From an uncultured bacterium (lineage in GTDB: Bacteria > Patescibacteriota > Microgenomatia > UBA1400 > PJMF01), in assembly GCA_903959355.1 (NCBI GenBank), contig CAJBWJ010000025.1:1-62864 (forward strand): a stretch of 62,864 nucleotides of DNA, in the 5' to 3' direction. The notes under the pieces are model-generated. The model made no database searches. It was not told where the DNA came from and saw only the letters and a list, made by a program, of their open reading frames with translations. Both the position numbers and the translations under genes were made by a program. This document shows positions 14,871 to 41,197 of this stretch, piece after piece. Position 1 is the stretch's first letter. Every line of letters starts with the position of its first letter.

Positions 14871-14954
14871 ACTTTTTGCCTTTTCACTAACGAGTACCAG
14901 TTTAACCTATTTTCGTTTCAAGCAAAAGCAGAAAAAAATTGTTATACTAACTTT

Positions 14955-15483: not shown

Positions 15484-18400
15484 TTATTGGTTTTCAACTG
15501 GTTGAACAAGCTCATATTGTGAAGAATTGTAAAAATATTCAATCTCTTGTCCATTACTAATAGCTCCAGCAAAACCAATTTCAACTGAATTATCTTCGAT
15601 AGGAGATTCACTGTCAAAATTAAGTCTACCTGCCTGAGCTGAAGATGGATAAAAAACGCCAGATTGTTCATTAGTTTGGCCAGTCCCAGGAGCAACCATA
15701 GCTATATGTCCCCTGGTTATAGCTATTGTAGGAATTCCTTGATTAGCCATTTCTTGAGCTTTTAAAGCAGAAGTAGATTGCCAACCTAAATCCTGTGCCA
15801 ATGGTTCTTCTAACCATTCTAGAGTAGTCGTCGCTGTCATCTTCTCACCATTTTTCCATCTTGGAATATAAACTCCAAGGGCACTTGTGACATCTGAAAC
15901 ATAGATATTACAAAAAGTTGTATCAGATGCTCGACGATAACGAAGACTTTCATCAACATTGAATAATTGTAAAGTTTTTAAATAATCATTAACATTTCTA
16001 TTAGTTGCGTACTCTGGGAAAATACTAGTATCTATCGGGTTCCACTCATCTCTGTCTATCAACATCAATGTTCCATCAGGCATGTATTTATATTTTGCAT
16101 AAGGATCCTCAACAACATATTCATCTGGCAAAGCAGTGTTCAAAATAACAGTTTTAACTTCAACTGGAGGTTGTGCTGCTATTGAAGTTGGAGATGGAGA
16201 TGGAGACGGTGACAAAGAAACACTTGGAGACGGAGATGGCGACGGTGACAAAGAAACACTTGGAGACGGAGATGGCGACGGTGATGCAGTTAAAGTCGGA
16301 CTAATAGTTTCTACAATTTGAGTTGGAGATGTTTGATTTGAAACAGTTTCTAATTGAGCATTAATTGTTTGAGAATAAATTGTAAGAAATACTCCAAGGC
16401 CAATAGATAAACCTCCTATTCCTAGTAAAATCTTTTTCCAAAAACCACTAATTAAATCATCATTTTCTGTACTTGGGGCTACAGAAGGAGATGGAGTAAC
16501 TGCGCTAGGTGATAAAGAAACACTTGGAGATGGAGACACACTAGGATCAATTGCTACTGAAACGGATGGGCTTACTGAAGGACTAACATCAACTTTTTCT
16601 TCTATTTTTTTACTGTCTTTGGTTAAACTAGAAATTTTTTCTACTAGTTCATCAAAAAATATTCTTTGTCTGGTAGAAATCGCAAAATCTCGCAAAAAGA
16701 CTCTTATCGAACTGATTCCACTTGAAATAACAGTATTTTGTAATTCAAGTAAACTCCCACTGATGATAATTCTTTCAAATTTTCCATCTTTTCCTTCTTT
16801 AAAGAAGGCCCATGATTGAAGTCCCTCTATATCTTTGCTGACATTGCCAAACAATAAATCTGCCACATCTTCAACTTCATCAGAAGTTAGATCTTTATAT
16901 TTAACAGTTGAGCCAAAACCGAAGATGCCACCTTCTCTGATACTCATTTTCTTACTATTAAGCATTTCTTCAGCCAGAATCGTGGCTCTATAAACAGAAT
17001 CTATAGCACTATCAACATCTGCTCTGGTCTTTCTGATCATGGCCTCACGAGTATTTATCCAAGCATTAAGATACAACTGCACACACTGATTTTGCATGCC
17101 ATGAGCATTAACCACCTGATTACGAGTGTCGCCTAATTGCTTTATAGCTGCTTTTTTCTTAGCTTCTGCCTGTTTAGCTAGATCTGCTGCTTTTGTTTGA
17201 TCTCCAGCTGTTTCGGCTATTAAAGCTTGTTCATTGAGAGCATTGGCTTCGGCCATTAAATTATCAGAAATTTGCACACCATTTTTAGTAGCTTCGCGAA
17301 CTTGAGCACAATCAGAGCACAAATCATTAAAAGCTAAGCTATCAGCATTAGACATCTCTCCCTGGAAAGATCCTGGGTTTGTGCCATGAGCTATGGCATC
17401 AATAAATTCATAACGAAGTGGAGCAACTTGCTTGAGATATTCTGGAGCAACTGAATACAAAGCTATAACATCTGCTAAATCTTCAGTTACAGCACGATCG
17501 TGTTGATCTCCACCAGCATCCTTGTAAGAATAATAGGCTTTCGCATAGTCAGTTGGTGGCAATTCAGTTGAACCTTTAGTTGAACCATAAAAATTATTAT
17601 CAAAAGAAGTAAGTAGTCTTGATTTGACGTAATTGCCATTAGCATCTTTTTCATATTTAATGATGTGACCAATTTCATGAATTAAAGCTGCTATAGATGC
17701 CTTATCTGACAAACCAATGTTAGATAATATCTTCTGCAAATGACTCTTCGTTTCATAATCAGATGTAAATTTAATAGATCCAAGCCACTGACCATTACTC
17801 AGAATCTCACTACCAGAAATTCCATAATAACTTTCACCACCATCAATTGTGCCAGGCTCCATTTTTTCTAATCTTATTTGATCAGTTTGCAGATAAGAAT
17901 AAAAAGGCGCTACCTTTTCGAAAGCAGATTGATAAGCAGATAAGTCTTTAGAATTAATTGATTGACTGTATTCTGCAAAATAAAAACCAACTTTTTGATT
18001 ATTACTATTAACAAAAGTTAATTCTGGTATATTTTCAGCATCCAACACTTTATTAGTTTTAGAAGAGTTGAAAAAAGATGCTGTTAAAGAGTCTGGGGCC
18101 GCTGTACTTAAAGAGCCATTTACCTTAGAAACTGTAGAAATGTCGCCTTGCGAATCTGACTGGGAAACAACAGTTGGAGAATAAATCTTGAAAGCTAACT
18201 TAGATATTTCTGTAATAATTCCAGGAGTAACATTATATTGTGTCTTATTGTCCAAGGCATTATAAATAACAATCGTATAGGCATCGCCATTTGGAAGTGT
18301 CACTATTGCAACATCTGAAGCTGTGAAAATGTCATCCTCTAAAACTGTCCCTGTTTTGTGAGCCATTTTGGCTTTAATTTCTGCTGTCAATCCAGCTCCA

Positions 18401-21400
18401 ATTCTAAAATCGTCATCTTTAGAATAAGTCTTCATCAAATTCAAAATATAATCAGTGCTAGTTTTTGATAAACCAGATTTATTAGCATAAAGATTTTCAA
18501 GAATGATGGCCATCGACTCTGCACTCGCACTTCTAGCATATCCGTCTACATCTTCTGTATAATATAAAATTCCATTTATGCCTATTTCTTCAAAATAAGC
18601 ACTCATGTCTTTTTGAGTAGAAGCATTAACAAAATCAACAAGTATAGATGTTGCTTCTTCTTCTGATTGAATCAGCATTGCTTTCATAAGTTGCGCAATA
18701 ATTCTGTCTTGACCTTTTGGAGCAATTTGCAAAGCTTGTTCTAAACTAATATTTTGCGATTCAAAATACCTCATCACCGCCATAGCCACTGGCACTTTAA
18801 TTGTTGAAGCAGCATGAAAAGATTTATTTTCCTGGTAAGAATACCCTGCTTCAGTTGAACCAATCTTATGTATGTAAGCTCCCCATTCTCCAGGAGCTTC
18901 TTCTAATATTCCTGTAATTTCTTGCTCTATTGCCTTAATTTCTTGATCACTTAGAGATGATTGCTGTGTTGGAATCGCATTTACTGCTGGAGGTGCAACG
19001 ACGGTTGGAGCTTTTTCAACTACTGGAGGTTGCGCAACAACTGCTGGAGCTTCAACAACTGGAGCTTGCTCCACAGGAGCTTGTGCTTGTGGAGCTTCAA
19101 CGGTTTGAACAATGGCTGGTTTATTGTCTACTGGATTCACTTTGGTACCCTGAGGAACCACTGAGAAGTAAACAATTGAGGCAACAACCATTGCAGACAA
19201 AACTGCCGCAACAATATTTCTTGGTTTACGAATGTTTAATTTTGGCAAATTAATTTTTGAAGCAAATCTCTTAGCAGCCGCCTTCTTAGCCCATAAATAA
19301 AGACCGGTTCCAAAGGTTCCAAAACCAACGGCTGCTGCAGCTGCATTGCGACCCAAACTCTTCCTGAAGTTATTGAGTCCATTACCTAAACTCTTAAGCG
19401 TTTCTGCTGGTTTAAATTCTTTTTTGTCTGCAACTGGAGCGATAGCGACTGGAGCAACACCACTAATTTCTTGCTTCTTGGCTTCTATCAAAGAAGTGAG
19501 TTTATCAGCCTGCATAATTAATTTGGCAGCACTGGCACTTGAAGAGTCAAAAGTGTATGGCTGACCAGTTAGAGTTATGTATTCAGAAATGAGAGTCTCT
19601 GCATTTGTTCTCAATTTACTCATGTAGTCACTTCTTTTTTGTAGAGTGTCAGCAAAAGCATTAATTTTTTCAAGAATATTATCTTGATTAAAATCGGAAG
19701 TCATTAAATAATCCAAGCCATCTACAACTCTCGCTAAATTACGATTTAATTCAGACAAAGACACTGAGCCGATTGATCCCTCAACTTCAAAAGCAGCAAT
19801 AACTGGCTGAATTTCTGTTAAAGCCAATTCTAATTGTTCTTGTTGTTTATCAGAGATAAAATTAGTTCTCATCTGTCTAACAATTTCTCTAATGCCAATT
19901 CTTAGAGAGTCTCCAATATATTCTTGACTACTCTTTTGTAATTGGACGTCTTTCAATGTTTTTAATTCTCCAGCCACTAATTCTTCTGTCAGATTTCCAG
20001 CATCTTCTTTAAATTCAGCCCATTTTTTAAGTTTCTGAGTCATTTCTTCAAAATCAGTCTTAGCTTGAGCATCTAGAGGAATGTTTTGTACTGGAGTAGT
20101 TAGACCAGGTAAACCAACGGCTTTAGTTATCATGAAACCATCGGCTAAAGTTTGACGAATAAATTGAGTTGCTTCATAGACAGACTTTATGGCTGAATTA
20201 GTATCGGCTAAAGTTTGCCTAATCAAAGCTTCACGTGCTCCAACCCAAGCATTTAAATAAAGTTGAACACATTGGTTTTCCCAACCATGATCATAAATTA
20301 CTTGGCTACGAATATCATCTAATTGTTTAATCGCAGCCTGTTTTTTGGCTGCAGCTTGCTTGTCAAAATCCACAGCTTGCTTCTGATTACCTGCGGTTCT
20401 GGCAGCAACAGCTTGTTTACTAAAAACATCAGCCTCAGCTAGAAGACTGTCAGCAAGTTCTACACCAGCTTTGGTTTGTTCACGAACGAGATCACAGTCG
20501 GAACAGAGACTGTTTAAATATGAACCAGCTTCATCTAACAAATTGGCAGGAGCAGTATTTAAAGATTGTCCCTGAAACAAACTTTCCAGATAAGTAATTG
20601 CGTCATTCAATTTGTTTACATCTAATAAATTAATGGATTTTATTAGAGACTGAACCAATAAGGAATCTACTCCATTGATTCTTTGTAAAGCCAACTTGAA
20701 TTCAAAAAGTCTACTTCCAAGACTTGTTGGATCATAATTAAGTAAAGATTTGGCACTAACATATTTCATGGCTTCAGCAAATGTTCCCACAGAACTGTGG
20801 GTAAAAACTCCAGCATCAGGTACATAAAATTGATTTGTTACTCCATCAAATTCAGGATTACTAACTAGTTTCTCCAAGTAATGAGCTAATTCATGAACTG
20901 AAACTCTTGTGTAGTTACCTGCCAAACTTCTTTGCAAATAAAAGGTTTTTTTAGTTGAACTAGCATTACTATTGTCATATCCACTAAAAGCTCCAGCAAA
21001 ACCATCTACTCCTTCTACAAAAGCAACTTCTTCTATGCCAAATGTTTTTGCAATTTCCAATATTTTCTTTCTAGCAAATTCTTCACTAGCTGTTAAATCT
21101 TTGGCAACATATTTTTCTGGATCTTTAAAGAAACTGTCCATTCCTACATAAGCATTGACCATGCTGGCCGCTTGAGCAACACGAGCAGTGTCAACCTCAC
21201 TCAAAGGCTGTTCAGAAACTTGTTCCACTTCAATTCCCAATTCTTTGGCCATTTCCATTTCTTTACTTACTCTAGACTTAGTACCCAATTCATTGGATTT
21301 TTTAGCAATTTCAGCTTGAACTTGTAATCTTTTAAGCAGCATGCTGGTGGTTTTTTTAGAATCATCAGTAGTTACGTTTAGGTTTAGAATCAACTTCAAA

Positions 21401-33400: not shown

Positions 33401-36400
33401 TAATCGATGAAGGCTTTGTTTGGAATTGGATTTTCACCACCAGTCGTCCATGGCTTTGCTAATTTAGCCTCTGGAAAAACCACAAATTGTGGCTGACCAG
33501 TTAAACGCTGTTTTAGCAAAATATTAAAAGGCATCACCACATCAGTTTTACCCATACCAGGCAGTGCTCCAAAAACTGTACCGCGTCGACCTGCACCAAA
33601 AGCTTCTACCTCTGCTAACAAGAAAACATCCTGATCTTTGAAGGTATCAGTTCCACTATAAATTTTGAAAGGACCACCATTTTTCTTAACATCTGCTTGG
33701 GTTTCACTAGATCGTCTAAAGGTTTCAAATGCCTGCAACTCTGTATTTAGAATATCGAGTTGTTTTTGTTTGATGCCGGCAGCTAAGCCAGCGTCTGTGA
33801 CTACGTACTTAGTAAAATCACCAGATTTATCAACAGCTATTACAGCACCATTACCTTTTAAAGGATTTCTAGCAGTTTTTAGTAATTCAGTAACCTCACC
33901 CTCCAATCTAGTTATTTCTACTTGATTAGCTGTAGCATCCTCAGTTTTTAATCTTTCAATTTCTGCCTGTTTGGCAACAATTGCTTCCGCTATATTTAGG
34001 TTGCTTTCACCCATTTTTTTTGCTGCATCTTTCAGATCAGCAATCTGACCTCTAGTTTTAATGCCTGATACAAAATCAGTGATAGTTTGTCTCATGCCTT
34101 TACTTGGATTAGCTGCCGCTTGAGCTAAAAGATATTGCTGGTCGCGTAATTGACGATTTGCATCAGCAAGCTGTTCTCTAAAAGCTTTTGCATCAGCACT
34201 ATCTGCTCCGACGCCAGCCAATTTTGCTCTGAGCGTTTCAGCTTCACGAGTTAAATCTAGAGATTTGTAATAAGCTTCTCTGGTAGACTTACCTGGACTA
34301 AAAAAGTCTGTAATCTTCTTCCAAATTGGACGGCTATCAGCAGAGACTGCATCAGCAATTTGTCTGATGCCGCCAATTTCTGCATCGATAGCATCAAATT
34401 TAACCATTTCAACTTGTAAATCATTTCTTTGAGTTTCTAAGTCAACAACTCTGGCAGTATCTGCTTCGTTTAAAACTCCCTGATTATTTAATCTATTAAT
34501 TTCTGCGCTTAATCCGTCAATTTTTCTGCCAACCTGATCGCTACTATCAACACCAAGGCCAATTAATAATGCTTGTTTTTGACTTTCCAGCGCAGTAACT
34601 TTGGCTAAACTATCCTGCAAAGCAGCGATAGAAGCCAAGCGCTTGGTTTCGTCAGTTTCCAATTTAACTTTAGTGGCATTGGCCTCCAGATCAGTTTGAT
34701 ATTTGGTAACTTGTTCGTTGTCTGGAGCGTACTGCTTAACTAAGCTGGCTTTCTCGACATCATTTTTTAATAAATTCTCATATTCAGAAAAAGCTTCGTT
34801 TTTCTTTGCCACGCTTAAAAGAGCTTCATTCTGAGTTTTGAGTGAATCAACTGCTGAAAGACTTTTTGTTAAATTTTCCAAATCAGCCACTAGGGCAGTT
34901 CTTTTTTGTTGGAGATCAGCGACTTCGCTTTCTGGTAAAAGGACACCTCTTTTAGTAATTTGTTCATCAATTGCAGTGATTTGATCTCTAACAGCAGCGA
35001 TTGCATTTGGCCCTTCTTTAAAAATTTCTATCTGTCCAGCTAAATAAGCTTCTTTTTCTGTTTGAGCAGTTTTTCTAGCGACCTCTGCTTGATCAAGATA
35101 ATTAGCTACTTCTGCTTTTCCAGCAATTCTGGCAGCTTCAACGTCAGCTGCATATTTAGCTTCTGCAGCCTTACCAGCTTCGGCGCTATCTTTTAATTGA
35201 GTTTCTAAGTCAGATGCTACACGAACACTACTAGCCATATAATTTTCAGTTGAATTATCATTGCCAGCAATTCTAAAGTTTGGATTGATGCCCTCAGCCT
35301 GAGCGACTAAATTCGATCTCTGAGCTTGCAAATCATTAATTTGCAATCCCTCTCTCATGCCTTTATTTGGACCATTTAAAGCCAAAACTTCGGCGTCGAT
35401 AGCATCAATTTGTTTTTGAATATCCACAACGTGAGCAGTTTCAATTCCTGCCTTAGCTGCTGCTGTATCTGCTAGATAAGATTTTCTACTACTGGCAATT
35501 TGAGAAACATTTTGACCGGCACTAAGTGCCAAACCTATCCAAGCATTGGTACAATCTTTTTCTGAAAAAGCCCCACTTGAACCATAACAAGCTTGAGCAA
35601 CTTGCTGAGCATCAACTGCTGCGCCAGCTGGAACGTTCATTGCATCTAGCACATAATCAATTTTATTGGTGTAAGAAGTTGGACCAAGCAAACCAAAAGT
35701 GTTGCCAGCAACACCTGAAGCTGCCACAAAGGAACTAATTCCACTCATAATTCCACCACCAATATTGCCTTCTTGAAATGAATTGTAAGAAGAAATTCCA
35801 GAATTAACTGCATTGTAAGAATTCATGGCTATACCACTAACTTGACCTGCTTTAGTTAAAACTTGACCAGAAGTAGCTAAGACATTAGCTGTAGCACCAG
35901 CATTAACTGCGCCAGCAGCACTAGTCAATAAACCACCAACACTAGTCATAGCTGCCACTGCTGAATTAGCCAACATCATGTTGCCTTGCTGATTAAGTGC
36001 ATCCACCTGAGCGCTCAAGTCAGTTTTGACTTTTTCAATCGTTACTTCATCTGCTCCGTTTTCTATGTAAGATTGAACAACTGCGTTTTCTCTAGACTCA
36101 ATATCTATTCTTTGAATTTCTAAGGCTTGAGCCTTCATTCCAGCACCTTGATATAAAGAAAAGGCAGAGGAAGCTATGCCCAGCACAGCTGGAGCGCCGA
36201 CACCACTGATTAACATTGCTGTTAGAACTGGAGCAGCTACCACTGGAGCTACTACTTTTGATAAGCGTTCAAAATCTAATTGCTGACTAGAACGCTGTAT
36301 TTCTGGATCAGTTAAGAACTGCTCATAAGTGGCCTGATCGACTTGATTAATTCCAGCTTTATTGGCATTGGCAATATAATTACTGTAAAGATCATTCTTC

Positions 36401-39192
36401 ATGTTTTCTGAATAATCTGCCTTAAACTCTTCATTAGCTTTATTGGCATAATCCACAGGATCGATAAGAGTAATATCCTGATTGTCTGTATACATGCTTT
36501 GATTAATTGCAGCTTGATTCATTTGACCAGCTGCATACATCGCTCCAGCCTGAGTCATCACTGCTCCAATATCTTCTCCCCAATTTTTAAATGTTTTAGC
36601 AGTGTAATAGCCAGAAGTAGCAGGTTGATAACTGTAATCAAGTACACCCATATTGCTGGCTCCTGTTAGAGCTATATTAGAAATTCCAGTATCAGCTGGA
36701 CCGGTGTAATCTAAATATTTAAGGAGAATCTTCTTTCTTTTCTTACTGGTCGCATAGTTAGTAGCAATATTTTGTGCCACATCAACACCAGCTACTTGAG
36801 AACTTAATTGATTAAAAGTTAAGCCAGCAGTTTGACCAAAATTTAAACCCATTTCTTCTGGTGTAAATTCACGATTTATGATGTTGTCTGCCATCAAAGC
36901 ATTGCCATAAGACATGCCCCAGGTGTAATCGCTAAGCGCACCTCTATTTTCTGTAGCATAAGAAAAAGTTTGGGAAGCATTAAAAATCTTGCTTGCTTCA
37001 ACAGCTGTTGAATAAGAATCCATTGCCTGCTGCTGATTGTCCAAAGTAGCACTGAAGTTTTGAGCTACTGCTGAATCTTCACCCAAAAAAATAATAGCAC
37101 TAGCGCTGTCAGCTGTTTGAGCCATGGCAAAATTAGCAAAAGCTAAATCCCAGAAACTCTGAGTCTCTTGTGTTTTATTTTCAGCATAAATTTGATTTGA
37201 ATAGTTAACGGCTAGATCTGGAACATTAACTTTAGGATCGCCTTGATAAATTTGATCCAGCATTAAAGAAATTTTGTCGGTAGCATTTTTAGAATCAATA
37301 TTACAGTCTGGAACATTCAATTCCTTACAAACAGAAGTCAATGAACGCCCTCCATCTATCGCAAAATTAGAAACAGCTTCATTGAAACGATTTGGTAAAA
37401 CAATTTGACCGTAAAGTTCATTGCCTGCTTCTGAACCATAAATACTAGACAGCAGCAGTTTTGGATCATCTGGTACCCAAGTTCCATAGCTATTCGCTGA
37501 ATCACTATTTGAATAATAATTCTTCAAATAAGACACATCCTGTGTGTTGGCATAAAGACTTAAAGCAACTTGAGAATTATATTTAGCAATTTCTTTTTTC
37601 AGCCACTCTTCAGTCACACTTCCTTCTAGAGTTTTGCCAGTATAAAGAGTGTAAAGATTAGATAAATCATCATAAGAAGCAGCTTTTCCTTGATTATCAA
37701 TGTATTGACTTGTTAAATTTTTCTCCTCAGCAGCAGTTGTTCTAGCAGCGACAATTGTAGCTGCTTCCTGTTGAGCTTGAGTTGTAGAAGTGCCAGAGAA
37801 TTTAGAAAGAAGAAGGGCTAGAACCTGTGCTTCAGATAAATTTTTAAGCTGGTCAGCAGTGATAACTCCAGCAGTAATAGCAGCACTCTTCAAACCGTTA
37901 ATATCTGTGCTACTACCATTAACATAGTTTTGATACTCAGTATTTAATTTATTAAAATCTTCAGTTTGTTTGGTTGTTTGTGCTGGAGTTTGATCGGTGG
38001 TCTGACCTGCAGCTTGAGAAGGCTGAACAACTGGTGCAGCATATTTAGCACGATCAGCATTGAGTTGTGCTGGATCAATACCAAAAGCACCAAGAATTCC
38101 ATTTACATTACCGTACTTGGTGCTTGGATCATAGCCAAAAATTGCCTTAAATTGTTCTGTAGCAATTCTATTCAAATCGCTATCACTGCCAGCTACCACC
38201 AAAGTAGAATACATTTTGTTAACAGCAGCATTTAATGTCGTTTGCTGAGAAGTGGAATCATTAAGCTGATCTAGAACTTGATAGCGATTAGCTAAGTTAG
38301 GATCATTGATAATTTGCTTGTTAAAATCAAAAATTGCTTGCTCATTAGAATTAAGTGAGCCCTTACTAGTCAGAGCAGCATTCTCTGCTGCTGCTTGTTG
38401 CTGAAGAACAGAAGCGTTGGTTAAAGCTGATAAAATTGCCTGTGCTTTAAGAAGACCAGCATTAGCTGCATTAGGATCATAAAGTGAACCAGCAGTAAAA
38501 CTCACTCCATAAGTTTTTTGATAAAGATCTTCTAAGGCTTTTACATCACCATTTGTTTTGTATAGATCAACGGCAGTTTGCCAATCTTTGTAAGGAACTT
38601 CAATTTTTTCCAAATGAGCGTAACAATAATCACCAGCAGTATTAGTACAACCAGTGGCGCGGGGTGGAACAACCAGATAACCATTAACTGTTGCGCCATA
38701 AGCGTAACAAGTATTGCCTAGAGCTACACCTTGTCCATTACAATCTTTTCCTAGGTTTTCAGTAGAACCAACTACTTTAGAAACATTCTCGGCTCCAAAG
38801 CTAGTGCTTTCATAAACCTTCTTATCTTCAATATATGGATAATCATAACGACCTGAAGCCAAGATTATTTTCCCGCCAGCTAGCTCATCTCCAGGCATAT
38901 AACAAAAACTGTTCATCCACATACCACCACCACAGCCGCTCTGAGAACTAGGACGAGTTCCAGTGTAAGTGGTGCTAATAATTCCTTGGGTGTTTAGATT
39001 GCTGCTTGGAGCGGTGGTAACAGCAGGAAGCAAGCCATTGCAGTAAGGATTACTTACAGGACAGGTTCCACTAGCTTGTTGACGAGTATCTTGATTGCTT
39101 TTGAGTAGAATAAAACCAGCTGCGGTAGAGATACACAAAAAAAGAAATAACAACACAGAAAAGAGATAGCGTTTCTTCTTTTGAATCAGCAT
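15484..39192 (-). CDS. giant multidomain membrane/surface protein, 7,902 aa
   Basis: Single uninterrupted frame of 23,709 nt from ATG (39190-39192) to TAA (15484-15486). The N-terminus MLIQKKKRYLFSVLLFLFLCISTAAGFILL is a signal anchor. Several catalytic motif sets are listed as separate sub-features. Confidence 0.85.
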   Translation of the reverse strand: MLIQKKKRYLFSVLLFLFLCISTAAGFILLKSNQDTRQQASGTCPVSNPYCNGLLPAVTTAPSSNLNTQGIISTTYTGTRPSSQSGCGGGMWMNSFCYMPGDELAGGKIILASGRYDYPYIEDKKVYESTSFGAENVSKVVGSTENLGKDCNGQGVALGNTCYAYGATVNGYLVVPPRATGCTNTAGDYCYAHLEKIEVPYKDWQTAVDLYKTNGDVKALEDLYQKTYGVSFTAGSLYDPNAANAGLLKAQAILSALTNASVLQQQAAAENAALTSKGSLNSNEQAIFDFNKQIINDPNLANRYQVLDQLNDSTSQQTTLNAAVNKMYSTLVVAGSDSDLNRIATEQFKAIFGYDPSTKYGNVNGILGAFGIDPAQLNADRAKYAAPVVQPSQAAGQTTDQTPAQTTKQTEDFNKLNTEYQNYVNGSSTDINGLKSAAITAGVITADQLKNLSEAQVLALLLSKFSGTSTTQAQQEAATIVAARTTAAEEKNLTSQYIDNQGKAASYDDLSNLYTLYTGKTLEGSVTEEWLKKEIAKYNSQVALSLYANTQDVSYLKNYYSNSDSANSYGTWVPDDPKLLLSSIYGSEAGNELYGQIVLPNRFNEAVSNFAIDGGRSLTSVCKELNVPDCNIDSKNATDKISLMLDQIYQGDPKVNVPDLAVNYSNQIYAENKTQETQSFWDLAFANFAMAQTADSASAIIFLGEDSAVAQNFSATLDNQQQAMDSYSTAVEASKIFNASQTFSYATENRGALSDYTWGMSYGNALMADNIINREFTPEEMGLNFGQTAGLTFNQLSSQVAGVDVAQNIATNYATSKKRKKILLKYLDYTGPADTGISNIALTGASNMGVLDYSYQPATSGYYTAKTFKNWGEDIGAVMTQAGAMYAAGQMNQAAINQSMYTDNQDITLIDPVDYANKANEEFKADYSENMKNDLYSNYIANANKAGINQVDQATYEQFLTDPEIQRSSQQLDFERLSKVVAPVVAAPVLTAMLISGVGAPAVLGIASSAFSLYQGAGMKAQALEIQRIDIESRENAVVQSYIENGADEVTIEKVKTDLSAQVDALNQQGNMMLANSAVAAMTSVGGLLTSAAGAVNAGATANVLATSGQVLTKAGQVSGIAMNSYNAVNSGISSYNSFQEGNIGGGIMSGISSFVAASGVAGNTFGLLGPTSYTNKIDYVLDAMNVPAGAAVDAQQVAQACYGSSGAFSEKDCTNAWIGLALSAGQNVSQIASSRKSYLADTAAAKAGIETAHVVDIQKQIDAIDAEVLALNGPNKGMREGLQINDLQAQRSNLVAQAEGINPNFRIAGNDNSTENYMASSVRVASDLETQLKDSAEAGKAAEAKYAADVEAARIAGKAEVANYLDQAEVARKTAQTEKEAYLAGQIEIFKEGPNAIAAVRDQITAIDEQITKRGVLLPESEVADLQQKRTALVADLENLTKSLSAVDSLKTQNEALLSVAKKNEAFSEYENLLKNDVEKASLVKQYAPDNEQVTKYQTDLEANATKVKLETDETKRLASIAALQDSLAKVTALESQKQALLIGLGVDSSDQVGRKIDGLSAEINRLNNQGVLNEADTARVVDLETQRNDLQVEMVKFDAIDAEIGGIRQIADAVSADSRPIWKKITDFFSPGKSTREAYYKSLDLTREAETLRAKLAGVGADSADAKAFREQLADANRQLRDQQYLLAQAAANPSKGMRQTITDFVSGIKTRGQIADLKDAAKKMGESNLNIAEAIVAKQAEIERLKTEDATANQVEITRLEGEVTELLKTARNPLKGNGAVIAVDKSGDFTKYVVTDAGLAAGIKQKQLDILNTELQAFETFRRSSETQADVKKNGGPFKIYSGTDTFKDQDVFLLAEVEAFGAGRRGTVFGALPGMGKTDVVMPFNILLKQRLTGQPQFVVFPEAKLAKPWTTGGENPIPNKAFIDYVESQFGKGSVVIIKANDTSVDPIAIANAKFVITTKDVAFDLQNTDTKLGLNLRSKWRNSFVHADEVDWTFNPNENYKLSGTQIALRDKAEFGLYADAQKQVLGIDENGNLLPGRGLNTLNDLISKLSNSKSVPEGIARTSDGKGGKFASPELEKQVLGEWLGTWGGQSKIPGLDMSADTKTIRQQINDYLTRGTDADVHQRRAEMAMINETVNFLSRVPGEDYGPTSNKKTVGGVEEVVSSIAPREQGRTSGRSYSAVAESLLYNSLGARIMGANGQVDINKITVGEGGSEINYALLMLESRGFSLYTGTPETVAKLYKMAYGIELNVFTDSAVDSSIARFNAPPAGTNSRVFTNLQDQMTARLADGRNQVFINMASGLRSNEAALANLVKTITDTGAPYQKILLVGANGELIEYQISGGALLRTGEFASTEAMNARTADLDKTSERYVKFYEYGAHVGVDTANNVSLSRAIGLCNGCDQTTFSQGINRVRVQVTKNSTGAYEVKHAPIDIVWLDAPSVLRDPSIENFTADMSRLQTINEALAEVSFKETLLKNSVDGTFAELIDLARNGKDGFLGFGSYKTNLDIVSQLEAAQQKWKETTGMNYMLGSDDMTAQAKLEKTASQVGAAYAELTRLLANSGEPAKLLAKRADGAIGNNPVKLAFSGDEGYQVLGENPSYRQIVDLINQSSKHLESVNIAFTNKSSAPEVVGNEMARAASEAQINSKTSTDGNIDGGAAPVRPGSDGPDANGGGAGLVRPAGDTTTNNGTNNTRNTTTNNNSSNQSSQNNSSRNIGFATFASNLWNGAVDEEKLLAENAAAVEDNKTAIAAGYQAQIEKLIEQLGAATEPAEKDAIDQQIKNLKAAQADQTAIDAAAKAKTTEQLADNYRTDGIKSFFVNSERGGTFTVSAASLANLPVAWSDSFNEQAFMTDNKAEIDNTALQIKADALLEKAAEMQAVADEINKLNQELQKTKANKKQQELLAAMEALAKQVDVIQAENESINQKDFTAEAIPVVKEKYADDVKYVQIGLSTHLSNLRSGVSRLLASIPERAGGLNVSADRALKAWNEAKALLENKKENLAPVADAGTQSVPEIQNNKTSSVSLSERIKQLSDRAKQLWQKTAGFRQAVSSLASKLKTVPTNRIAILSPEEKTQLDTLAKDYGDINAEVKYLNSQISDAKAILKDLEQKIKLSGEINQELENIKNNTTQLQAKLKELQGQRDEFLIRSKEISNQATALSGQIKPAFTKEQQAAAAQKIRDKVVVELDKNINQSLRTLALSLSRENNKDLAAVRMQITQTIKGEFARYKLQPALSYVVGEFSYLPEFKNDPEGADGYIRDILGTVTEDFFVARHTATNRLQISLQEDEVTRRDIITIGDVHGDWKALVGLLSGSSTNESGERISKPLLDSNEKWIGGPTDYLVLTGDLFDRAPAGVSAAETAERIMNLQKQAGNFADGTPRVKVLIGNHDINAIFAYWRMKDILANRPNVDKNTAAEAGSFTGMNPGITPEEVIYLFDHPDLANWVMNLDAMTIDDGVLRFHSDTTAYTAYGKTVQDVNNRIRSIMSNQSGLKDLELLLHDLTKREGFDLAGDVSYFLETYNAEHLVHGHSETAVPKDSRVTNVDGALSGSYDSKYGKGKSRGRTFTQTVPGIEKLNVAIAAGLPKQQLGVILARPLSDVLIEANEQSESSRQKLSQLRSEFENISAQLGQINKQIEKNNLDTDAAANSGSKLQDQLSVLNVANLLSAQANTNQTITGLEDGLLQSTALLQKAKALLDAQREVSNFLNSFRQAGIQVKPFLLGNEALSDVSVLSQKLLDLVLEAFNQHKFTRNAFILNISKITPNFVSLNGLLSIADRTIDLSAKIQAALDDASKLLEETNRKKELIGKINPIMEELKAKGAILEYDLAAMTADELEKALVDLQQMNESYVNENDQINNSPEDGIALSALRDKAVQIGAESSLVNSWKTEIDANQWLNDQQRKFTKISELFKSLGIDVNIVTVGDYEKQLDILSNLIIEIDALEKSSGLDYVFFQGSTEDILGMIIINQDSASFKDVNDFKSKASNAVKSNTKLIDFVKKYDPVFSKLRQPGMIGSLSLREINEALRTVDRATKFFQNSKLENKKWWTEIKDFAKQLTDVKANLTSLRSELKQLAQSYLTTTKKKFNYNLDAGEISLREQIQQIKSLINTDETSSSNQGVDYNLFLVAQNNLALKNLTKQQILDLAKATNLPLNTYSETKLYEDIYGILLDSSYRKDIVQIIAGVEEVVPGSDLDPRVSVEINQQSGSSMEQSIYEAVANSIDAIPGIGNSIGKFGKGIKQILAWLDTNGQDNVEVLTTSAGSESVLYLRVSKNESGYNISLKKLSKDDAKRDFAFDLDHGTKIKLSVKDDIAKLNSELNDVKTISQEKIVGGVRNKYSFVPGLKIFTSFGGDDYKLINGYNKKRSIIPYSKGGIVNDPKDNVVYVKANSNSIEIIDNGTGMNEALLSRMFVPKQGSKVTEPLNEQQIEQEKTKLGLIFEELGNDEEKRIIFSRNREGIVSFVLPSNKVEGSLVSGNLLLELANLVEVPESRDSLIINSKSESGKMSNFEVAIDDMVDRIVSNSELQSLEKIKYINTIIAGIEFLEGGNPSYKKTINSIKGATKDKIKDILVSLRKDGYLIFTDEASFSSIAIDRNKTVFLNKDVFDWNESYYLKNYLGAKIVSNITVGGASKLPLVFVDFDDNATSLARAFNGAWHLNTAIDRLPVIKNGSMVVLPKNVYAFARFIELNDLRSQRELNTEEQQEFLDLAERIDIITADQVVTDYEIGSVEQNLRIEDVEIITKDELNVKVDEGNIDSDIVNKFLANDFSSSFVNPSTNTNYKKTLQPFTGAPTGEILVDQNGGVLDVKSGALILESGAEAGVYSYNSRGSNYYTKTAYDQNEFSTLQFSNEYTLLLKEEIEFTSSSFLKSKQKNAIIIENGKKHFYSFYLNKTIGYGGYSIGFDDIVSGPNGLFYFGIINGQIVEVFFPQMIDDPRFLTSEFDTFKENLIESLNKNDFKVWFTINDPPGPYSIDKFRGAEIRLDFPKGRALFDAGGNFVFTADPTAFIAPTLNESNLKDQGFIEIENDKLSSYIYRTVTNENQKKDIQMINFSKSASLSHLDDAYGVPRIISYGTAGVNITLNYGGKVTSRIVSKATMDPEGRFLFVGESPNMEIFDLRNGYSELVSIDPKFTKGDITVVSDGDAIVIKSNIYGTNQTSFVLLKDKNNKQVVITFHGEINQTQLGRIIDDLKSGADTKESLETKGLTEFNQINGVNKADILNKIIGENQENRDRYIQEFRNIYMPILNSVPEEHRQEFISSIKQMYVEQEEYLKSQVLSYATNGSEIDLSNGPIDMAIKNANKIPNMQAFLEDFNKRYGSLEPYDKSYAYQHLSLSLFSFMKADHTILDIKTSDLSLSAYITPFLRQKSIDMNRACRPLIEALENEGYGYTQILHISAFFDEIAGREWSDPKIVSQQIAKIMALRSGERKKFFDLIVGSFKSNIRLLDIYLRRYSKEDIDNIPADLRSIFIFLSRDVDQLRLDDREQATGRDINLPEEGLQVSQIIKMNQAKGSLSQPVNNLEELVTGFATNVPKIDENLESEVLKNIAVQREGDAHTAEITQNAKDATRGRAGKLVVDFYLRVRNGIREYVEEAYDNGTGALDEIALLIPKSTKSIGQQIDLAGFFGTGKYTIFEGVDKVEIVSVNEDRAYQFFFEVKKNDAGNPEKLVLVGFKDLAGENLPTGVTVRRIKYAENTIPEFEAISSRQSWKMFAGMSQNDNFKIYIKAADGKEEELIVEGKKLLADVDLNLFDKDTKTVVNKGKIQIYETKDMPLQIIDRNGLRVKEIKDEYLKLIPKDLRKYVSDLHLNIQIPLPLIRNRGSFENESYYLPQIQKYLAIAFFKALAQKAITQTNPQFVFTSLPLDWYSSPNYSYAFDLGKDVELIGIIKKINDGKIDELSTEELQSLINQEEMDWKNGILKLILNLNVTTDDSKKTTSMLLKRLQVQAEIAKKSNELGTKSRVSKEMEMAKELGIEVEQVSEQPLSEVDTARVAQAASMVNAYVGMDSFFKDPEKYVAKDLTASEEFARKKILEIAKTFGIEEVAFVEGVDGFAGAFSGYDNSNASSTKKTFYLQRSLAGNYTRVSVHELAHYLEKLVSNPEFDGVTNQFYVPDAGVFTHSSVGTFAEAMKYVSAKSLLNYDPTSLGSRLFEFKLALQRINGVDSLLVQSLIKSINLLDVNKLNDAITYLESLFQGQSLNTAPANLLDEAGSYLNSLCSDCDLVREQTKAGVELADSLLAEADVFSKQAVAARTAGNQKQAVDFDKQAAAKKQAAIKQLDDIRSQVIYDHGWENQCVQLYLNAWVGAREALIRQTLADTNSAIKSVYEATQFIRQTLADGFMITKAVGLPGLTTPVQNIPLDAQAKTDFEEMTQKLKKWAEFKEDAGNLTEELVAGELKTLKDVQLQKSSQEYIGDSLRIGIREIVRQMRTNFISDKQQEQLELALTEIQPVIAAFEVEGSIGSVSLSELNRNLARVVDGLDYLMTSDFNQDNILEKINAFADTLQKRSDYMSKLRTNAETLISEYITLTGQPYTFDSSSASAAKLIMQADKLTSLIEAKKQEISGVAPVAIAPVADKKEFKPAETLKSLGNGLNNFRKSLGRNAAAAAVGFGTFGTGLYLWAKKAAAKRFASKINLPKLNIRKPRNIVAAVLSAMVVASIVYFSVVPQGTKVNPVDNKPAIVQTVEAPQAQAPVEQAPVVEAPAVVAQPPVVEKAPTVVAPPAVNAIPTQQSSLSDQEIKAIEQEITGILEEAPGEWGAYIHKIGSTEAGYSYQENKSFHAASTIKVPVAMAVMRYFESQNISLEQALQIAPKGQDRIIAQLMKAMLIQSEEEATSILVDFVNASTQKDMSAYFEEIGINGILYYTEDVDGYARSASAESMAIILENLYANKSGLSKTSTDYILNLMKTYSKDDDFRIGAGLTAEIKAKMAHKTGTVLEDDIFTASDVAIVTLPNGDAYTIVIYNALDNKTQYNVTPGIITEISKLAFKIYSPTVVSQSDSQGDISTVSKVNGSLSTAAPDSLTASFFNSSKTNKVLDAENIPELTFVNSNNQKVGFYFAEYSQSINSKDLSAYQSAFEKVAPFYSYLQTDQIRLEKMEPGTIDGGESYYGISGSEILSNGQWLGSIKFTSDYETKSHLQKILSNIGLSDKASIAALIHEIGHIIKYEKDANGNYVKSRLLTSFDNNFYGSTKGSTELPPTDYAKAYYSYKDAGGDQHDRAVTEDLADVIALYSVAPEYLKQVAPLRYEFIDAIAHGTNPGSFQGEMSNADSLAFNDLCSDCAQVREATKNGVQISDNLMAEANALNEQALIAETAGDQTKAADLAKQAEAKKKAAIKQLGDTRNQVVNAHGMQNQCVQLYLNAWINTREAMIRKTRADVDSAIDSVYRATILAEEMLNSKKMSIREGGIFGFGSTVKYKDLTSDEVEDVADLLFGNVSKDIEGLQSWAFFKEGKDGKFERIIISGSLLELQNTVISSGISSIRVFLRDFAISTRQRIFFDELVEKISSLTKDSKKIEEKVDVSPSVSPSVSVAIDPSVSPSPSVSLSPSAVTPSPSVAPSTENDDLISGFWKKILLGIGGLSIGLGVFLTIYSQTINAQLETVSNQTSPTQIVETISPTLTASPSPSPSPSVSLSPSPSPSPSVSLSPSPSPSPTSIAAQPPVEVKTVILNTALPDEYVVEDPYAKYKYMPDGTLMLIDRDEWNPIDTSIFPEYATNRNVNDYLKTLQLFNVDESLRYRRASDTTFCNIYVSDVTSALGVYIPRWKNGEKMTATTTLEWLEEPLAQDLGWQSTSALKAQEMANQGIPTIAITRGHIAMVAPGTGQTNEQSGVFYPSSAQAGRLNFDSESPIEDNSVEIGFAGAISNGQEIEYFYNSSQYELVQPVENQ
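15487..16180 (-). other. giant protein: C-terminal Cys/His hydrolase-like domain (CHAP or NlpC/P60-like, tentative)
   Basis: TTFCNIYVSDV (Cys 15910-15912, residue 7761) and ITRGHIAMVAPG (His 15706-15708, residue 7829). The 68-aa Cys-His spacing resembles papain-fold cell-wall amidases/peptidases. Confidence 0.4.
16185..16590 (-). other. giant protein: Pro/Ser linker, TM helix, Pro/Ser linker
   Basis: VSPSVSPSVSVAIDPSVSPSPSVSLSPS..., then the TM helix ILLGIGGLSIGLGVFLTIY (about 16380-16440), then ASPSPSPSPSVSLSPSPSPSPSVSLSPSPSPSP. Confidence 0.7.
16205..16276 (-). repeat. perfect 36-bp tandem duplication inside the Pro/Ser linker
   Basis: GACGGTGACAAAGAAACACTTGGAGACGGAGATGGC occurs twice back to back (16205-16240 and 16241-16276), encoding SPSPSPSVSLSP twice. 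Confidence 0.9.
16984..17322 (-). repeat. giant protein: CxxC helical module, copy B
   Basis: LCSDCAQVREATKNGV...NQCVQLYLNAWINTREAMIRK...SVYRA. Same three Cys positions as copy A. Lies 119 aa after HExxH-2; copy A lies 129 aa after HExxH-1. Confidence 0.8.
17400..17900 (-). other. giant protein: zincin-like metallopeptidase motif 2
   Basis: AALIHEIGHIIKYE; HEIGH at 17665-17679 (residue about 7172). Confidence 0.5.
18180..18950 (-). other. giant protein: class A beta-lactamase-like / penicillin-binding serine hydrolase domain
   Basis: SxxK as AASTIKVP (Ser 18805-18807, residue 6796), an SDN-position SEE, and KTG as HKTGTV (18349-18357, residue 6946). The Ser-to-KTG spacing of 150 aa is close to class A enzymes. 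Confidence 0.65.
19156..19345 (-). other. giant protein: pair of TM helices
   Basis: AAAAAVGFGTFGTGLYLWA, then the basic loop KKAAAKRFASKINLPKLNIRKPR, then IVAAVLSAMVVASIVYFSVV. Followed by a Pro/Ala/Val/Gln-rich linker (18960-19140). Confidence 0.65.
20170..20508 (-). repeat. giant protein: CxxC helical module, copy A (protein-level duplication)
   Basis: LCSDCDLVREQTKAGV...NQCVQLYLNAWVGAREALIRQ...SVYEA. About 62% identical (70/113 by hand alignment) to copy B. Confidence 0.8.
20700..21100 (-). other. giant protein: zincin-like metallopeptidase motif 1
   Basis: VSVHELAHYLEK; HELAH at 20881-20895 (residue about 6100). Confidence 0.5.
22150..22500 (-). other. giant protein: GHKL ATPase domain (sacsin/Hsp90/MORC-like Bergerat fold)
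   Basis: Canonical order and spacing: EITQNAKDA (ExxxNxxD, 22459-22482), 37 aa, DNGTG (22357-22371), 23 aa, GFFGTGKY (22264-22287). Confidence 0.65.
25870..26530 (-). other. giant protein: GHKL-like motifs, atypically spaced
   Basis: N-box-like EAVANSID (ExxxNxxD, E at 26515-26517) and G1-box IEIIDNGTGM (25960-25974). They are about 180 aa apart instead of the usual 30-50, so the assignment is uncertain. Confidence 0.3.
28510..29290 (-). other. giant protein: PPP-family metallophosphoesterase (Ser/Thr phosphatase/ApaH-like) domain
   Basis: Complete ordered motif set: GDVHGD (29254-29271), GDLFDR (29110-29127), GNHD (28993-29004), HLVHGH (28573-28590). Confidence 0.75.
31900..33650 (-). other. 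giant protein: SecA-like DEAD/SF2 ATPase module
   Basis: Walker A GALPGMGKTDV (33544-33570), followed by LLKQRLTGQPQFVVFPEAKLAKPW (compare SecA ..[22 protein letters not shown]). Walker B HADEVDW (DEVD 33199-33210), then ..KLSG as in SecA DEVDSILIDEARTPLIISG. Degenerate C-lobe (GAHVGVDT, QGINRVRV). Confidence 0.6.
35650..36270 (-). other. giant protein: hydrophobic Gly/Ala-rich segments (candidate membrane-embedded region)
   Basis: VVAPVVAAPVLTAMLISGVGAPAVLGIASSAFSLY (about residues 975-1010), then MMLANSAVAAMTSVGGLLTSAAGAVNAGA and GGGIMSGISSFVAASGVAGNTFGLLGP. Confidence 0.45.
38580..39192 (-). other. giant protein: signal anchor plus Cys-rich N-terminal domain
   Basis: KKKR followed by a 21-residue hydrophobic core. 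Then 8 Cys in four close pairs (CPVSNPYC, CGGGMWMNSFC, CNGQGVALGNTC, CTNTAGDYC), suggesting a disulfide-bonded extracytoplasmic module. Confidence 0.55.
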
Positions 39193-41125: not shown

Positions 41126-41197
41126 AAAACGAATCGAGACAAAAATGTCCTTACATTAAATTTACATGATTCAGAGCCAAGCAACAAGTATTAGACT

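Follow-up and report, generated by a model that had tools for sequence, protein, structure and literature searches.

A 7,902-Residue Multidomain Protein of a Candidate Phyla Radiation Bacterium: a Putative Membrane-Anchored, Host-Directed Counterpart of the Omnitrophota Giant Proteins

Introduction

Does a bacterial protein of 7,902 residues that joins ATP-dependent modules to cell-wall enzymes serve the envelope of the cell that makes it, or does it act on another cell? The question is raised by a gene of 7,902 codons plus a TAA stop, with an ATG start, that occupies 15484..39192 on the minus strand of contig CAJBWJ010000025.1 (assembly GCA_903959355.1), whose 62,864 nucleotides (nt) form the window analyzed here. 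The features of the protein are given below with their coordinates on this strand. We assign the gene to an organism from the candidate phyla radiation (CPR), bacteria that account for a sizeable part of bacterial diversity, are mostly thought to live attached to other cells, and whose attachment and feeding molecules are almost unknown. A first inspection of the letters alone, called here the sequence-only reading, had ended in a dilemma: either the chain threads the membrane several times with catalytic modules on both faces, or it is an exported effector acting on or in another cell. From the evidence described below, we infer a membrane-anchored, largely exported, host-directed multi-enzyme protein, a reading of topology and function to which we give a probability of about 0.5.

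Very long multidomain proteins have been described in Omnitrophota, including the "Archaeovorin" type (West-Roberts et al. 2023, 10.1101/2023.11.21.568195; Seymour et al. 2023, PMC10066038; Nielsen and Lui 2026, 10.64898/2026.06.07.730766). They have many transmembrane (TM) helices and carry divergent SecA DEAD, HATPase_c, and Ser/Thr phosphatase domains, with type II secretion genes nearby (10.1101/2023.11.21.568195). Their proposed role is in prey adhesion and wall digestion (10.1101/2023.11.21.568195; PMC10066038; 10.64898/2026.06.07.730766). Proteins of at least 30,000 amino acids (aa) have been classed as "giant" and those of at least 10,000 aa as "large" (West-Roberts et al. 2023, 10.1101/2023.11.21.568195). 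Among CPR, the predatory Vampirococcus encodes membrane proteins that reach giant lengths, up to 4,163 aa (PMC8080830). The sequence-only reading knew of no characterized protein with the domain combination of the window protein. This is fair for the combination, but the kind of protein had already been described, in Omnitrophota and in CPR.

Results

One Gene in a CPR Genome

The giant frame is, as far as sequence data can show, a genuine single gene. Its translation contains a single stop, the terminal TAA, and no internal one, against 407–1000 stops in each of the remaining five frames over the same 23.7 kb, where the longest open run is 166 codons. At the local base composition (A+T about 64%), the probability of 7,902 stop-free codons is about 1e-268. 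The identical 7,902-aa protein is recorded by NCBI, JGI/IMG, and ENA on five contigs, the longest of 188.5 kb. The independent ENA assembly ERZ27313463 also predicts it as one gene, on a 108.6-kb contig; over the 21.8 kb compared, which include the first 9.9 kb of the gene, this contig and the window agree at 99.995% identity. Giant open reading frames (ORFs) from metagenomes can be chimeric, and the relative at locus L034 is frameshifted within the part corresponding to the second GHKL domain and the zincin described below. Against this stand the absence of stops, the recovery of the same protein from several sources, and the collinearity of its segments with relatives, which make it extremely improbable that the frame is an artefact of assembly or a pseudogene mistaken for one frame; we reject misassembly as far as sequence data allow. 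The single 23.7-kb ORF of the sequence-only reading thus holds.

The window has a G+C content of about 35%. Its flanking genes are 65–82% identical to those of Candidatus Pacebacteria UBA6188 (locus L036) and of the metagenome-assembled genome (MAG) that contains locus L026. Its gene content is typical of CPR: a class II ribonucleotide reductase, NrdR, a DUF5667 protein, a VirD4/TrwB-like ATPase, and PilN and PilO without a secretin. Because of this identity and gene content, we class the window as that of a CPR bacterium (Patescibacteria; Minisyncoccota in the current NCBI taxonomy) near Pacebacteria UBA6188. Two MAGs carrying related loci, that of L026 and L038 (CAZIBP01...) and that of L034 (CAZHLX01...), are labeled "Pseudomonadales". 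We rejected this label, as their flanking genes are 42–82% identical to those of the window: 65–82% for L026, which matches the range of UBA6188, and 42–43% for L034. The G+C content of both is 36–39%, and judging from these sequences they are probably CPR too.

A GHKL–Spacer–GHKL–Zincin Supermodule Shared with Omnitrophota

Two HSP90-like units and a zincin motif link the giant protein to bacteria beyond CPR. The GHKL1 unit (residues 4130–4775, 24868..26805), an HSP90-like Bergerat ATPase, aligns at 27–35% identity across about 30 loci. Its motifs are EAVANSIDA at residue 4226, GKFGKG at 4243, and DNGTGM at 4407, the E, N, D, and G positions being invariant in 14 sequences. Residues 5240–6170 (20683..23475) comprise a helical region, the GHKL2 domain (EITQNAKDA at 5571, DNGTGA at 5608, GFFGTGK at 5636), and zincin 1 (HELAH at 6100), with 28–45% identity in 36 loci and nine proteins. 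Between the two units lies a variable spacer of about 460 aa (residues 4776–5239, 23476..24867), which has no family match in Pfam or PHROGs and is unmatched in most loci, five alignments (L007, L011, L018, L036, and P0003) extending 50–120 aa into it. We call this whole arrangement the supermodule. The sequence-only reading had recognized GHKL motifs here, followed by about 1,100 aa of beta-rich sequence without a motif. The motifs are present, but they belong to two domains, with N-boxes at 4226 and 5571, and what remains of the unmatched stretch is the spacer, for which the beta-rich character is that reading's own judgment; the rest is the conserved helical and GHKL2 unit. The second GHKL domain had been overlooked, as had the modular nature of the family.

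Both domains resemble the N-terminal domain of HSP90/HtpG, with the ExxxNxxDA, DxGxG, and GxFGxG motifs aligned. The matches are marginal: E 1.4e-3 to 0.02 for the GHKL1 profile against the HtpG/TRAP1 N-domain and E 1.2e-3 for the GHKL2 profile against that of HSP90, the HATPase_c score of GHKL1, 18.6 bits, falling below the Pfam cut-off of 26.4. The giant's units differ from HSP90/HtpG in these E values of about 1e-3, in their fusion to an HExxH domain, and in the motif order of GHKL1, where GxFGxG directly follows the N-box and DNGxGM comes about 170 residues later. A further difference is that the Omnitrophota homologs of the supermodule bear signal peptides and so appear to be secreted. 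The presence of two HSP90-like domains in one chain recalls sacsin, a multi-HSP90-like protein. Comparison of the GHKL1 and GHKL2 alignments with hhalign gave an uninformative match, because one sequence overlapped both regions, and provides no evidence that the two domains are paralogs.

A search with residues 5501–6600 returned nine proteins at 35–43% identity, including proteins of Omnitrophota and Elusimicrobia. By scanning GTDB genomes, we identified 36 supermodule loci, mostly in Omnitrophota and otherwise in Ratteibacteria, Elusimicrobiota, Margulisbacteria, FCPU426, and MAGs labeled Planctomycetia. CPR account for two named MAGs (Gottesmanbacteria and Pacebacteria) and probably also for three loci from the two MAGs labeled "Pseudomonadales". 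With the whole protein as a tblastn query, the approximately 30 loci long enough for both carry two collinear blocks, at about 4130–4775 and about 5240–6160, parted by the poorly conserved spacer, which in L024 consists of TPR repeats. Complete supermodule ORFs range from 2,288 to 5,580 aa and many stop just past the zincin. All 14 retain both N-boxes, the second GxFGxG, the second DxGxG, and HExxH; the first GxFGxG is kept in 13 and the first DxGxG fits the pattern in 11. The HExxH motif is kept in all homologs that reach it, among them P0001–P0008.

Eleven or twelve of the 14 complete ORFs, mostly from Omnitrophota, begin with a cleavable signal peptide as judged by eye, for example MPKTPLAILTLVSFLVSLVIGPMPAYA|QD and MLKKSRILSILLCFCLVFEQTGFA|QI, and most of these have no further hydrophobic segment. 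An exported protein that keeps two ATP sites would be the strongest single argument for action at another cell's ATP. The signal-peptide-bearing ORFs (L007, L008, L013, L014, L016, L024, L025, L028, L029, L032, L033, and L035) form an unannotated, apparently ATP-dependent family of proteins of 2.3–4.5 kaa. No conserved partner gene was observed among the gene neighbors of the Omnitrophota supermodules. The 22-kb Gottesmanbacteria locus L009 (JAUXTO010000018.1) is one stop-free frame running past both ends and encoding more than 7,337 aa; because of this length, at least one other CPR lineage has a giant of similar or larger size with the supermodule.

A helical element of about 90 aa flanks the supermodule, at residues 4013–4099 (nt 26896–27156), within a helical region spanning residues 3600–4100 (26893..28395), and again at residues 6463–6549 (nt 19546–19806), with 26% identity between the copies. 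In L026 (nt 2033–2791), the copy behind the zincin resembles the window's copy in front of GHKL1 (41%). This element may be a recombination handle for cassette exchange. On the opposite strand, a 153-aa ORF (25550–26011, plus strand) lies antisense within the GHKL1 unit and is most likely a chance open frame.

A Divergent SecA-like ATPase

Residues 1840–2680 (31153..33675) are supported by fold and motifs as a SecA-like ATPase with two RecA domains. The motifs GMGKT at residue 1879, DEVD at 1995, TGTPE at 2239, GAHVGVD at 2386, and QGINRVR at 2416 correspond to motifs I, II, III, V, and VI of superfamily 2, with the arginine fingers, and an alignment of ten sequences shows GxGKT, DE, TGTPE, GAHxGVD, and QGxxRxR to be invariant. 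The AlphaFold (AF2) model built from this alignment has a predicted local distance difference test score (pLDDT) of 81.7 and a predicted template modeling score (pTM) of 0.79. Searching the PDB with this model using Foldseek gave SecA for all top nine matches (E 2.5e-12 to 1.8e-8, about 900 aligned columns), followed by RIG-I-like and DinG helicases at E 1e-6 or worse. In the model, an insertion of about 240 residues between motifs II and III occupies the site of the SecA preprotein-binding domain, and past the second RecA domain comes a helix of 45 residues. To the likeness in the two RecA-like domains, the five motifs, the II–III insertion, and the long helix after RecA2 are opposed an identity to SecA of 10–13%, the lack of a profile match, and a position in mid-chain between the helical stalks of a 7,902-aa protein. 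The profile of this region matched no PDB sequence, and a word-index search retrieved no homolog. Binding of SecYEG or of a preprotein is only putative. The SecA-like DEAD ATPase named in the sequence-only reading is therefore borne out by motifs and fold and not by a hidden Markov model (HMM) match. Segment by segment, the HMM searches recovered Metallophos and Beta-lactamase2, left HATPase_c below its cut-off, and yielded neither SecA_DEAD nor NlpC/P60 nor a zincin family.

A Small Family of Giants with a Fast-Changing Locus

An exhaustive HMMER search of 1.84 billion representatives identified only 19 clusters that share the SecA-like region, mostly within proteins of 4,600–7,500 aa. Among these relatives are P0016 (6,637 aa, 65% identical in the SecA-like region), P0017 (6,230 aa), P0018 (5,319 aa), P0019 (5,270 aa), P0022 (4,647 aa), and P0033 (7,512 aa). 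According to whole-protein BLAST, the N-terminal domain, the SecA-like domain, and the CxxC module are common to the window protein and all of P0016–P0018, and P0018 shares nothing else with it. P0017 has the phosphatase in addition, without the GHKL block. P0016 adds the hydrophobic region, both GHKL domains, and the zincin, whereas it has no phosphatase, beta-lactamase fold, or C-terminal domain. As P0016–P0018 keep the common parts and differ in their cassettes, the N-terminal half and the CxxC module define the family and the rest is exchangeable. The family core thus consists of a signal anchor, a disulfide-type domain, an Ala/Gly-rich hydrophobic region, a helical stalk, and the divergent SecA-like ATPase. 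The in-frame cassettes behind it are, by these comparisons, exchangeable, and the family appears small and fast-evolving.

The elements of this core had all been noticed by the sequence-only reading, and each was found again. The signal anchor (residues 12–30, 39103..39159) is preceded by KKKR and has a mean Kyte–Doolittle hydropathy of 2.52, with no AxA cleavage site seen in the sequence. The Cys-pair domain that follows (residues 31–330, 38203..39102) is the N-terminal hallmark of the family, 39–49% identical to P0016–P0018. Of its four pairs (44/51, 87/97, 151/162, and 182/190), the last three are invariant across the window protein and three aligned relatives. It has no match in Pfam, PHROGs, or the PDB and is presumably extracytoplasmic. 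Residues 331–979 (36256..38202) are 25–28% identical to P0016 and P0018 and contain no recognizable domain or family match in Pfam or PHROGs. The hydrophobic region (residues 980–1169, 35686..36255; Kyte–Doolittle) consists of an Ala/Gly-rich segment, 980–1014, and a weakly hydrophobic Gly/Ala/Ser segment, 1072–1169. A comparable Ala/Gly-rich stretch of 30–55 aa is present in all relatives, and the region is either a membrane anchor or a membrane-insertion region. Helical, coiled-coil-like sequence rich in Ala, Leu, Glu, Lys, and Gln lies on both sides of the SecA-like domain, at residues 1230–1830 (33703..35505; 52% A+E+K+Q+L+R) and 2730–3290 (29323..31005; 53%). Pfam gave only weak coiled-coil-type matches there; of the heptad-like, Ala/Glu/Lys/Gln-rich character claimed for this sequence, the composition was found again. 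An Asn/Thr/Ser low-complexity stretch covers residues 2695–2722 (31027..31110), where it had been placed.

At the syntenic locus of close relatives, the giant protein is 27–50% identical to that of the window, compared with 65–82% for its neighbors. The ortholog of the L026/L038 MAG is 28–50% identical, depending on the segment. The hydrophobic pair described below is present in it, as are the CxxC modules and the C-terminal domain; tblastn found no match to the beta-lactamase fold or the phosphatase. In Pacebacteria UBA6188 (L036), the giant ORF is truncated by the contig edge; its remaining length, at least 4,200 aa, includes an FHA domain and the supermodule (28–36% identity). Eleven nucleotides after it starts a 1,156-aa ORF with Amidase_2 and VanY domains, which occupy the place of the window's beta-lactamase fold and Cys/His domain. 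The fast divergence, the gain and loss of cassettes, and the swapped peptidoglycan enzymes would fit a protein that meets a changing partner. The giant gene of L034 has its frameshift around nt 10808–10881, in the GHKL2–zincin block, and is either a pseudogene or affected by an assembly error.

Phosphatase, CxxC Modules, and Wall-Directed Enzymes

A PPP-type metallophosphatase lies in front of the supermodule (residues 3304–3560, 28513..29283). As read by eye, its motif set is complete (GDVHGD, GDLFDR, GNHD, and VHGH at residues 3308, 3356, 3397, and 3537), and residues 3304–3541 match Pfam Metallophos at E 2.8e-9 (38.1 bits, cut-off 21.5). The closest solved structure is a Shewanella cold-active phosphatase (E 0.016).

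The two HExxH sites are each followed by a CxxC helical module, as had been noticed. Copy 1 (residues 6226–6454, 19831..20517; C6230, C6233, C6308) recurs in P0016–P0018, L026, and L034 and has an internal duplicate, copy 2 (residues 7288–7520, 16633..17331; C7292, C7295, C7370), the two being 33–55% identical. Zincin 2 (residues 7062–7280, 17353..18009), with HEIGH at 7172, shares 36% identity with L026, whose motif reads HETAH. Neither zincin has a Pfam, PHROG, PDB-profile, or fold match, the AF2 model of zincin 2 is of low confidence, and both are putative zincins by their conserved HExxH. Within a model of residues 7000–7902 with an overall pLDDT of 45.5, poor outside the CxxC module, residues 7290–7491 reach a pLDDT of 80–94 and form four long helices and a small alpha/beta part, for which Foldseek returned no fold match.

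Behind the supermodule and the first CxxC module lies a hydrophobic pair (residues 6617–6678, 19159..19344), formed by a weak Ala/Gly-rich segment (6617–6635), a 24-aa loop, and a strong TM segment (6660–6678), and followed by a Pro/Ala/Val/Gln linker. The same arrangement is repeated in L026. Next comes a class A beta-lactamase/PBP-A-like fold (residues 6773–6977, 18262..18876), announced in the sequence-only reading by its SxxK and KTG motifs (STIK at 6796, KTG at 6946) and well above the cut-off for Pfam Beta-lactamase2 (E 4e-27, 95.4 bits, cut-off 22). In the PDB, it matches class A enzymes and the PBP-A-like Tll2115 at E 1.7e-8 to 2.7e-4. The NCBIfam class A models give 66–74 bits, below their cut-offs of 200–320, and SEE at 6843 replaces SDN. 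On this sequence evidence, we class the domain as a member of the class A fold that is not a beta-lactamase proper. Like DD-peptidases of the PBP-A/class A beta-lactamase fold such as Tll2115 (PDB 2j9o), it matches Beta-lactamase2 and has SxxK and KTG; it differs in SEE for SDN, in its low NCBIfam scores, and in its place behind an anchor and a Pro-rich linker.

Residues 7534–7690 (16123..16593) form the Ser/Pro linkers already noted, here seen on both sides of a TM segment (7588–7606; Kyte–Doolittle and composition). A 36-nt tandem repeat (16188–16284) lies in the second linker, and the linker–TM–linker arrangement is also found in L026. The chain ends with a Cys/His domain (residues 7678–7902, 15487..16161) characterized by FCNIYVSDVT with Cys7761 and GHIAMV with His7829. 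Only two relatives have it, P0035 (53%) and L026 (50%), and the Cys and His are invariant in all three. No Pfam or PHROG match was obtained, and the pLDDT of the model is below 50. Aligned with the type VI secretion system (T6SS) amidase Tse1, the Cys of FCNIYV and the His of GHIAMV, separated by about 68 residues, fall in register with the catalytic pair, and both proteins would be wall-cutting enzymes against another cell, putatively so for the giant. Unlike Tse1, the domain has two relatives only and a model of low confidence. The similarity is suggestive, not significant, of a candidate NlpC/P60-type peptidoglycan amidase: the Cys/His domain reported earlier exists, and its papain fold is weakly supported.

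Gene Neighborhood

Upstream of the giant gene and on the same strand are, in order, MurJ, PilN, PilO, a 167-aa ORF, and a 605-aa Ig-like protein gene, 115 nt 3' of which the giant gene starts. PilN and PilO, genes of the type II secretion/type IV pilus kind, thus lie 2.5–3.7 kb upstream. The interval between PilO and the giant (39308–41701) contains the 167-aa ORF, which belongs to no family, and the 605-aa protein, which has purple-acid-phosphatase-N fibronectin-like and Big_13 Ig-like domains; the two products are possible partners of the giant protein, associated with the pilus or the surface. A consensus scan revealed no terminator between the 605-aa gene and the giant, the promoter and terminator scans performing at chance level, and looking up the upstream gene's relative in its 90% cluster yielded nothing.

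On the 3' side, a 224-aa ORF, SIMPL, GH18, and penicillin-binding protein (PBP) genes occur in the same order in L036 and L026. The SIMPL (DUF541) gene lies just 3' of the giant gene on the opposite strand (14115–15464 region), not only in the window and in the close relatives L036, L026, and L034 but also in the distant L039, where it is only 27% identical to that of the window. This adjacency may be more than inherited gene order. The conserved 224-aa ORF (14790–15464, plus strand) overlaps the SIMPL gene by 81 nt.

The window further encodes two class A PBPs, MurJ, GH18, and GH3 among its wall genes, as well as LepA, a four-domain S1 protein, and PGK. Between 48669 and 52202 lie 23S and 5S rRNA genes with a tRNA-Ala gene just upstream of the 23S and no adjoining 16S, which appears unlinked; the VirD4/TrwB-like ATPase gene is the next one upstream. 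A small ORF at 9920–10420 has weak matches to RnlA and RNase LS HEPN toxin-like proteins and adjoins a gene for a cytidylate-kinase-like AAA protein. A phage or defense-island origin was rejected for want of supporting matches: PHROGs gave nothing in seven segments of the giant protein, and PADLOC detected no defense system, a single Csn2 match being at chance level.

Discussion

Where Would the Giant Protein Act?

Under the export reading, the giant protein would be anchored in the CPR membrane, with most of it on display or exported where the producer touches a host or prey cell. Its N-terminal Cys domain and helical stalks would reach and bind the partner cell, the C-terminal enzymes would cut or remodel its peptidoglycan, and the SecA-like motor might help to thread the very long chain, as proposed for Omnitrophota giants. 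The supermodule and the phosphatase would act where ATP exists, in the cytoplasm of the producer or, as the signal peptides of the homologs suggest, in the partner cell. Kyte–Doolittle windows and charge counts, on which the topology is based, give four strong hydrophobic segments (12–30, 980–1014, 6660–6678, and 7588–7606) and two to four weak ones (in 1072–1169 and 6617–6635). The loop 6636–6659 should face the cytoplasm, since nine of its 24 residues are Lys or Arg. Together, the signal anchor, this loop, and the signal peptides of the homologs fit an exported body, in which case region 980–1169 crosses the membrane an even number of times.

Several observations weigh against this reading. 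In P0016–P0018, there are just two strong hydrophobic segments and the entire ATPase body follows the second; a single crossing at 980–1014 would leave the SecA-like motor and every ATPase on the cytoplasmic side, which contains ATP. There is no simple topology that places both CxxC copies on the same side, the loop 6636–6659 inside, and the candidate amidase outside. The window is itself rich in genes for its own wall (MurJ, the two class A PBPs, GH18, and GH3), and the beta-lactamase-fold domain without SDN could act on that wall as well. The SecA-like model reaches TM-scores to SecA of only 0.32–0.45, and its region has no Pfam match at E ≤ 1, SecA_DEAD and SecA_PP_bind included. The C-terminal profile matches Tse1 weakly (E 0.12–0.26). 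At L039, the sole other locus with a readable upstream side, PilN and PilO are not adjacent.

A rival reading is a multi-pass machine of the producer's own envelope. In it, residues 1015 to about 6616 (stalks, SecA-like motor, phosphatase, both GHKL ATPases, zincin 1, and CxxC copy 1) would be cytoplasmic, the parts outside would be the C-terminal enzymes together with the N-terminal Cys domain, and ATP use and phospho-signaling in the cytoplasm would be coupled to remodeling of the cell's own peptidoglycan or surface. Intact ATP-dependent catalytic motifs need ATP, the ATPase modules of the relatives all follow the second strong segment, the PPP domain of this protein and the FHA domain of its Pacebacteria relative are of a kind typical of cytoplasmic signaling, and the neighboring wall genes point the same way. 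However, the homologous supermodule bears a signal peptide, and is hence exported, in most complete ORFs (11–12 of 14). A giant that diverges to 27–50% identity and swaps domains beside neighbors at 65–82% is not what is expected of housekeeping wall machinery, and its presence in 19 clusters only does not suggest a general CPR requirement. This topology would also leave the loop 6636–6659 outside or split the CxxC copies across the membrane. We consider such a machine plausible but less probable than export. The dilemma posed by the sequence-only reading is a real one, since one chain joins nucleotide-dependent modules to modules whose usual place of work is outside the cytoplasm. Signal peptides, cassette swapping, peptidoglycan enzymes, and the CPR context lean to export, while the pattern of P0016–P0018 fits threading.

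Compatible with either topology would be a polyprotein, cut for instance by its own HExxH zincins into separately anchored products. Segments 6660–6678 and 7588–7606 resemble internal signal anchors in front of linkers and enzyme domains, so that each C-terminal enzyme has a leader of positive patch, hydrophobic helix, and Pro/Ser linker, like a stand-alone CPR exoprotein. The wall enzymes of L036 are a separate ORF, the supermodule stands alone as a protein in Omnitrophota, and processing by a built-in peptidase has been proposed for Omnitrophota giants (10.1101/2023.11.21.568195). However, the zincins have their HExxH motifs without a profile or fold match, and internal anchors cannot initiate translocation alone without a consistent topology, which makes cleavage quite improbable in our estimation. 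A bolder extension of the export reading makes the supermodule a secreted ATP-dependent effector inside another cell and the CPR giant a self-translocating multi-effector weapon of MARTX type. Such a site of action would explain why the ATP-site motifs are kept despite the signal peptides in Omnitrophota. After the C-terminal enzymes had opened the wall, the SecA-like motor and the Gly/Ala-rich regions would bring the phosphatase, along with the ATPase/protease cassettes, through the envelope of the host. We consider this unlikely, and equally doubtful its corollary, that ultra-small episymbionts independently invented a MARTX-like principle that spread across phyla by cassette exchange.

Relation to Known Giant Proteins and Toxins

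MARTX and large clostridial toxins, which the giant protein may resemble in outline, are long secreted or membrane-inserting chains with strain-variable enzyme cassettes, some of them dependent on cofactors of the target cytoplasm, and with hydrophobic Gly-rich insertion regions. Set against them, the giant protein differs in that RTX-type repeats, a cysteine protease processing domain, and a type I signal were not identified in it; its delivery is hypothetical.

The nearest parallel is with the Omnitrophota giants. In both cases, a very long ORF of an ultra-small bacterium that depends on a host encodes a poorly conserved protein with several hydrophobic segments and few known domains. Both also have a divergent SecA-like ATPase, HATPase-type and Ser/Thr-phosphatase-type domains, wall enzymes, and type II secretion/type IV pilus genes nearby. 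The supermodule is directly homologous to Omnitrophota proteins, at 28–45% identity. The CPR giant differs in size, its 7,902 aa being below both the 30,000- and the 10,000-aa thresholds, and in its host, CPR not belonging to the PVC group. Its SecA-like domain, confined to 19 clusters, escapes Pfam SecA_DEAD, the long helix after RecA2 being apparently kept, and the N-terminal Cys domain and the CxxC module are specific to its family. Pfam detected in it neither the Archaeovorin set (glycosyltransferase, methyltransferase, glycoside hydrolase, and NUDIX) nor dockerin or TSP3 domains. In a limited search of the giant-protein literature, we found no description of the double-GHKL/zincin supermodule, of its signal peptides, or of cassette swapping at a syntenic CPR locus. 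The giant protein is not categorically new; we would regard it as an informative CPR variant or counterpart of the giant SecA-domain proteins of Omnitrophota.

This locus offers a testable candidate for the molecules by which CPR bacteria meet other cells: a rare giant family with a structurally supported SecA-like motor and a cassette shared with predatory Omnitrophota. The exchange of wall enzymes at the same position in close relatives is the expected look of a host-range determinant in an arms race. At 2.3–8 kaa, these proteins provide an entry point of moderate size to the larger and less tractable Omnitrophota giants. If it is true that the built-in SecA-like domain exports its own chain, the Sec motor would here be put to a novel use.

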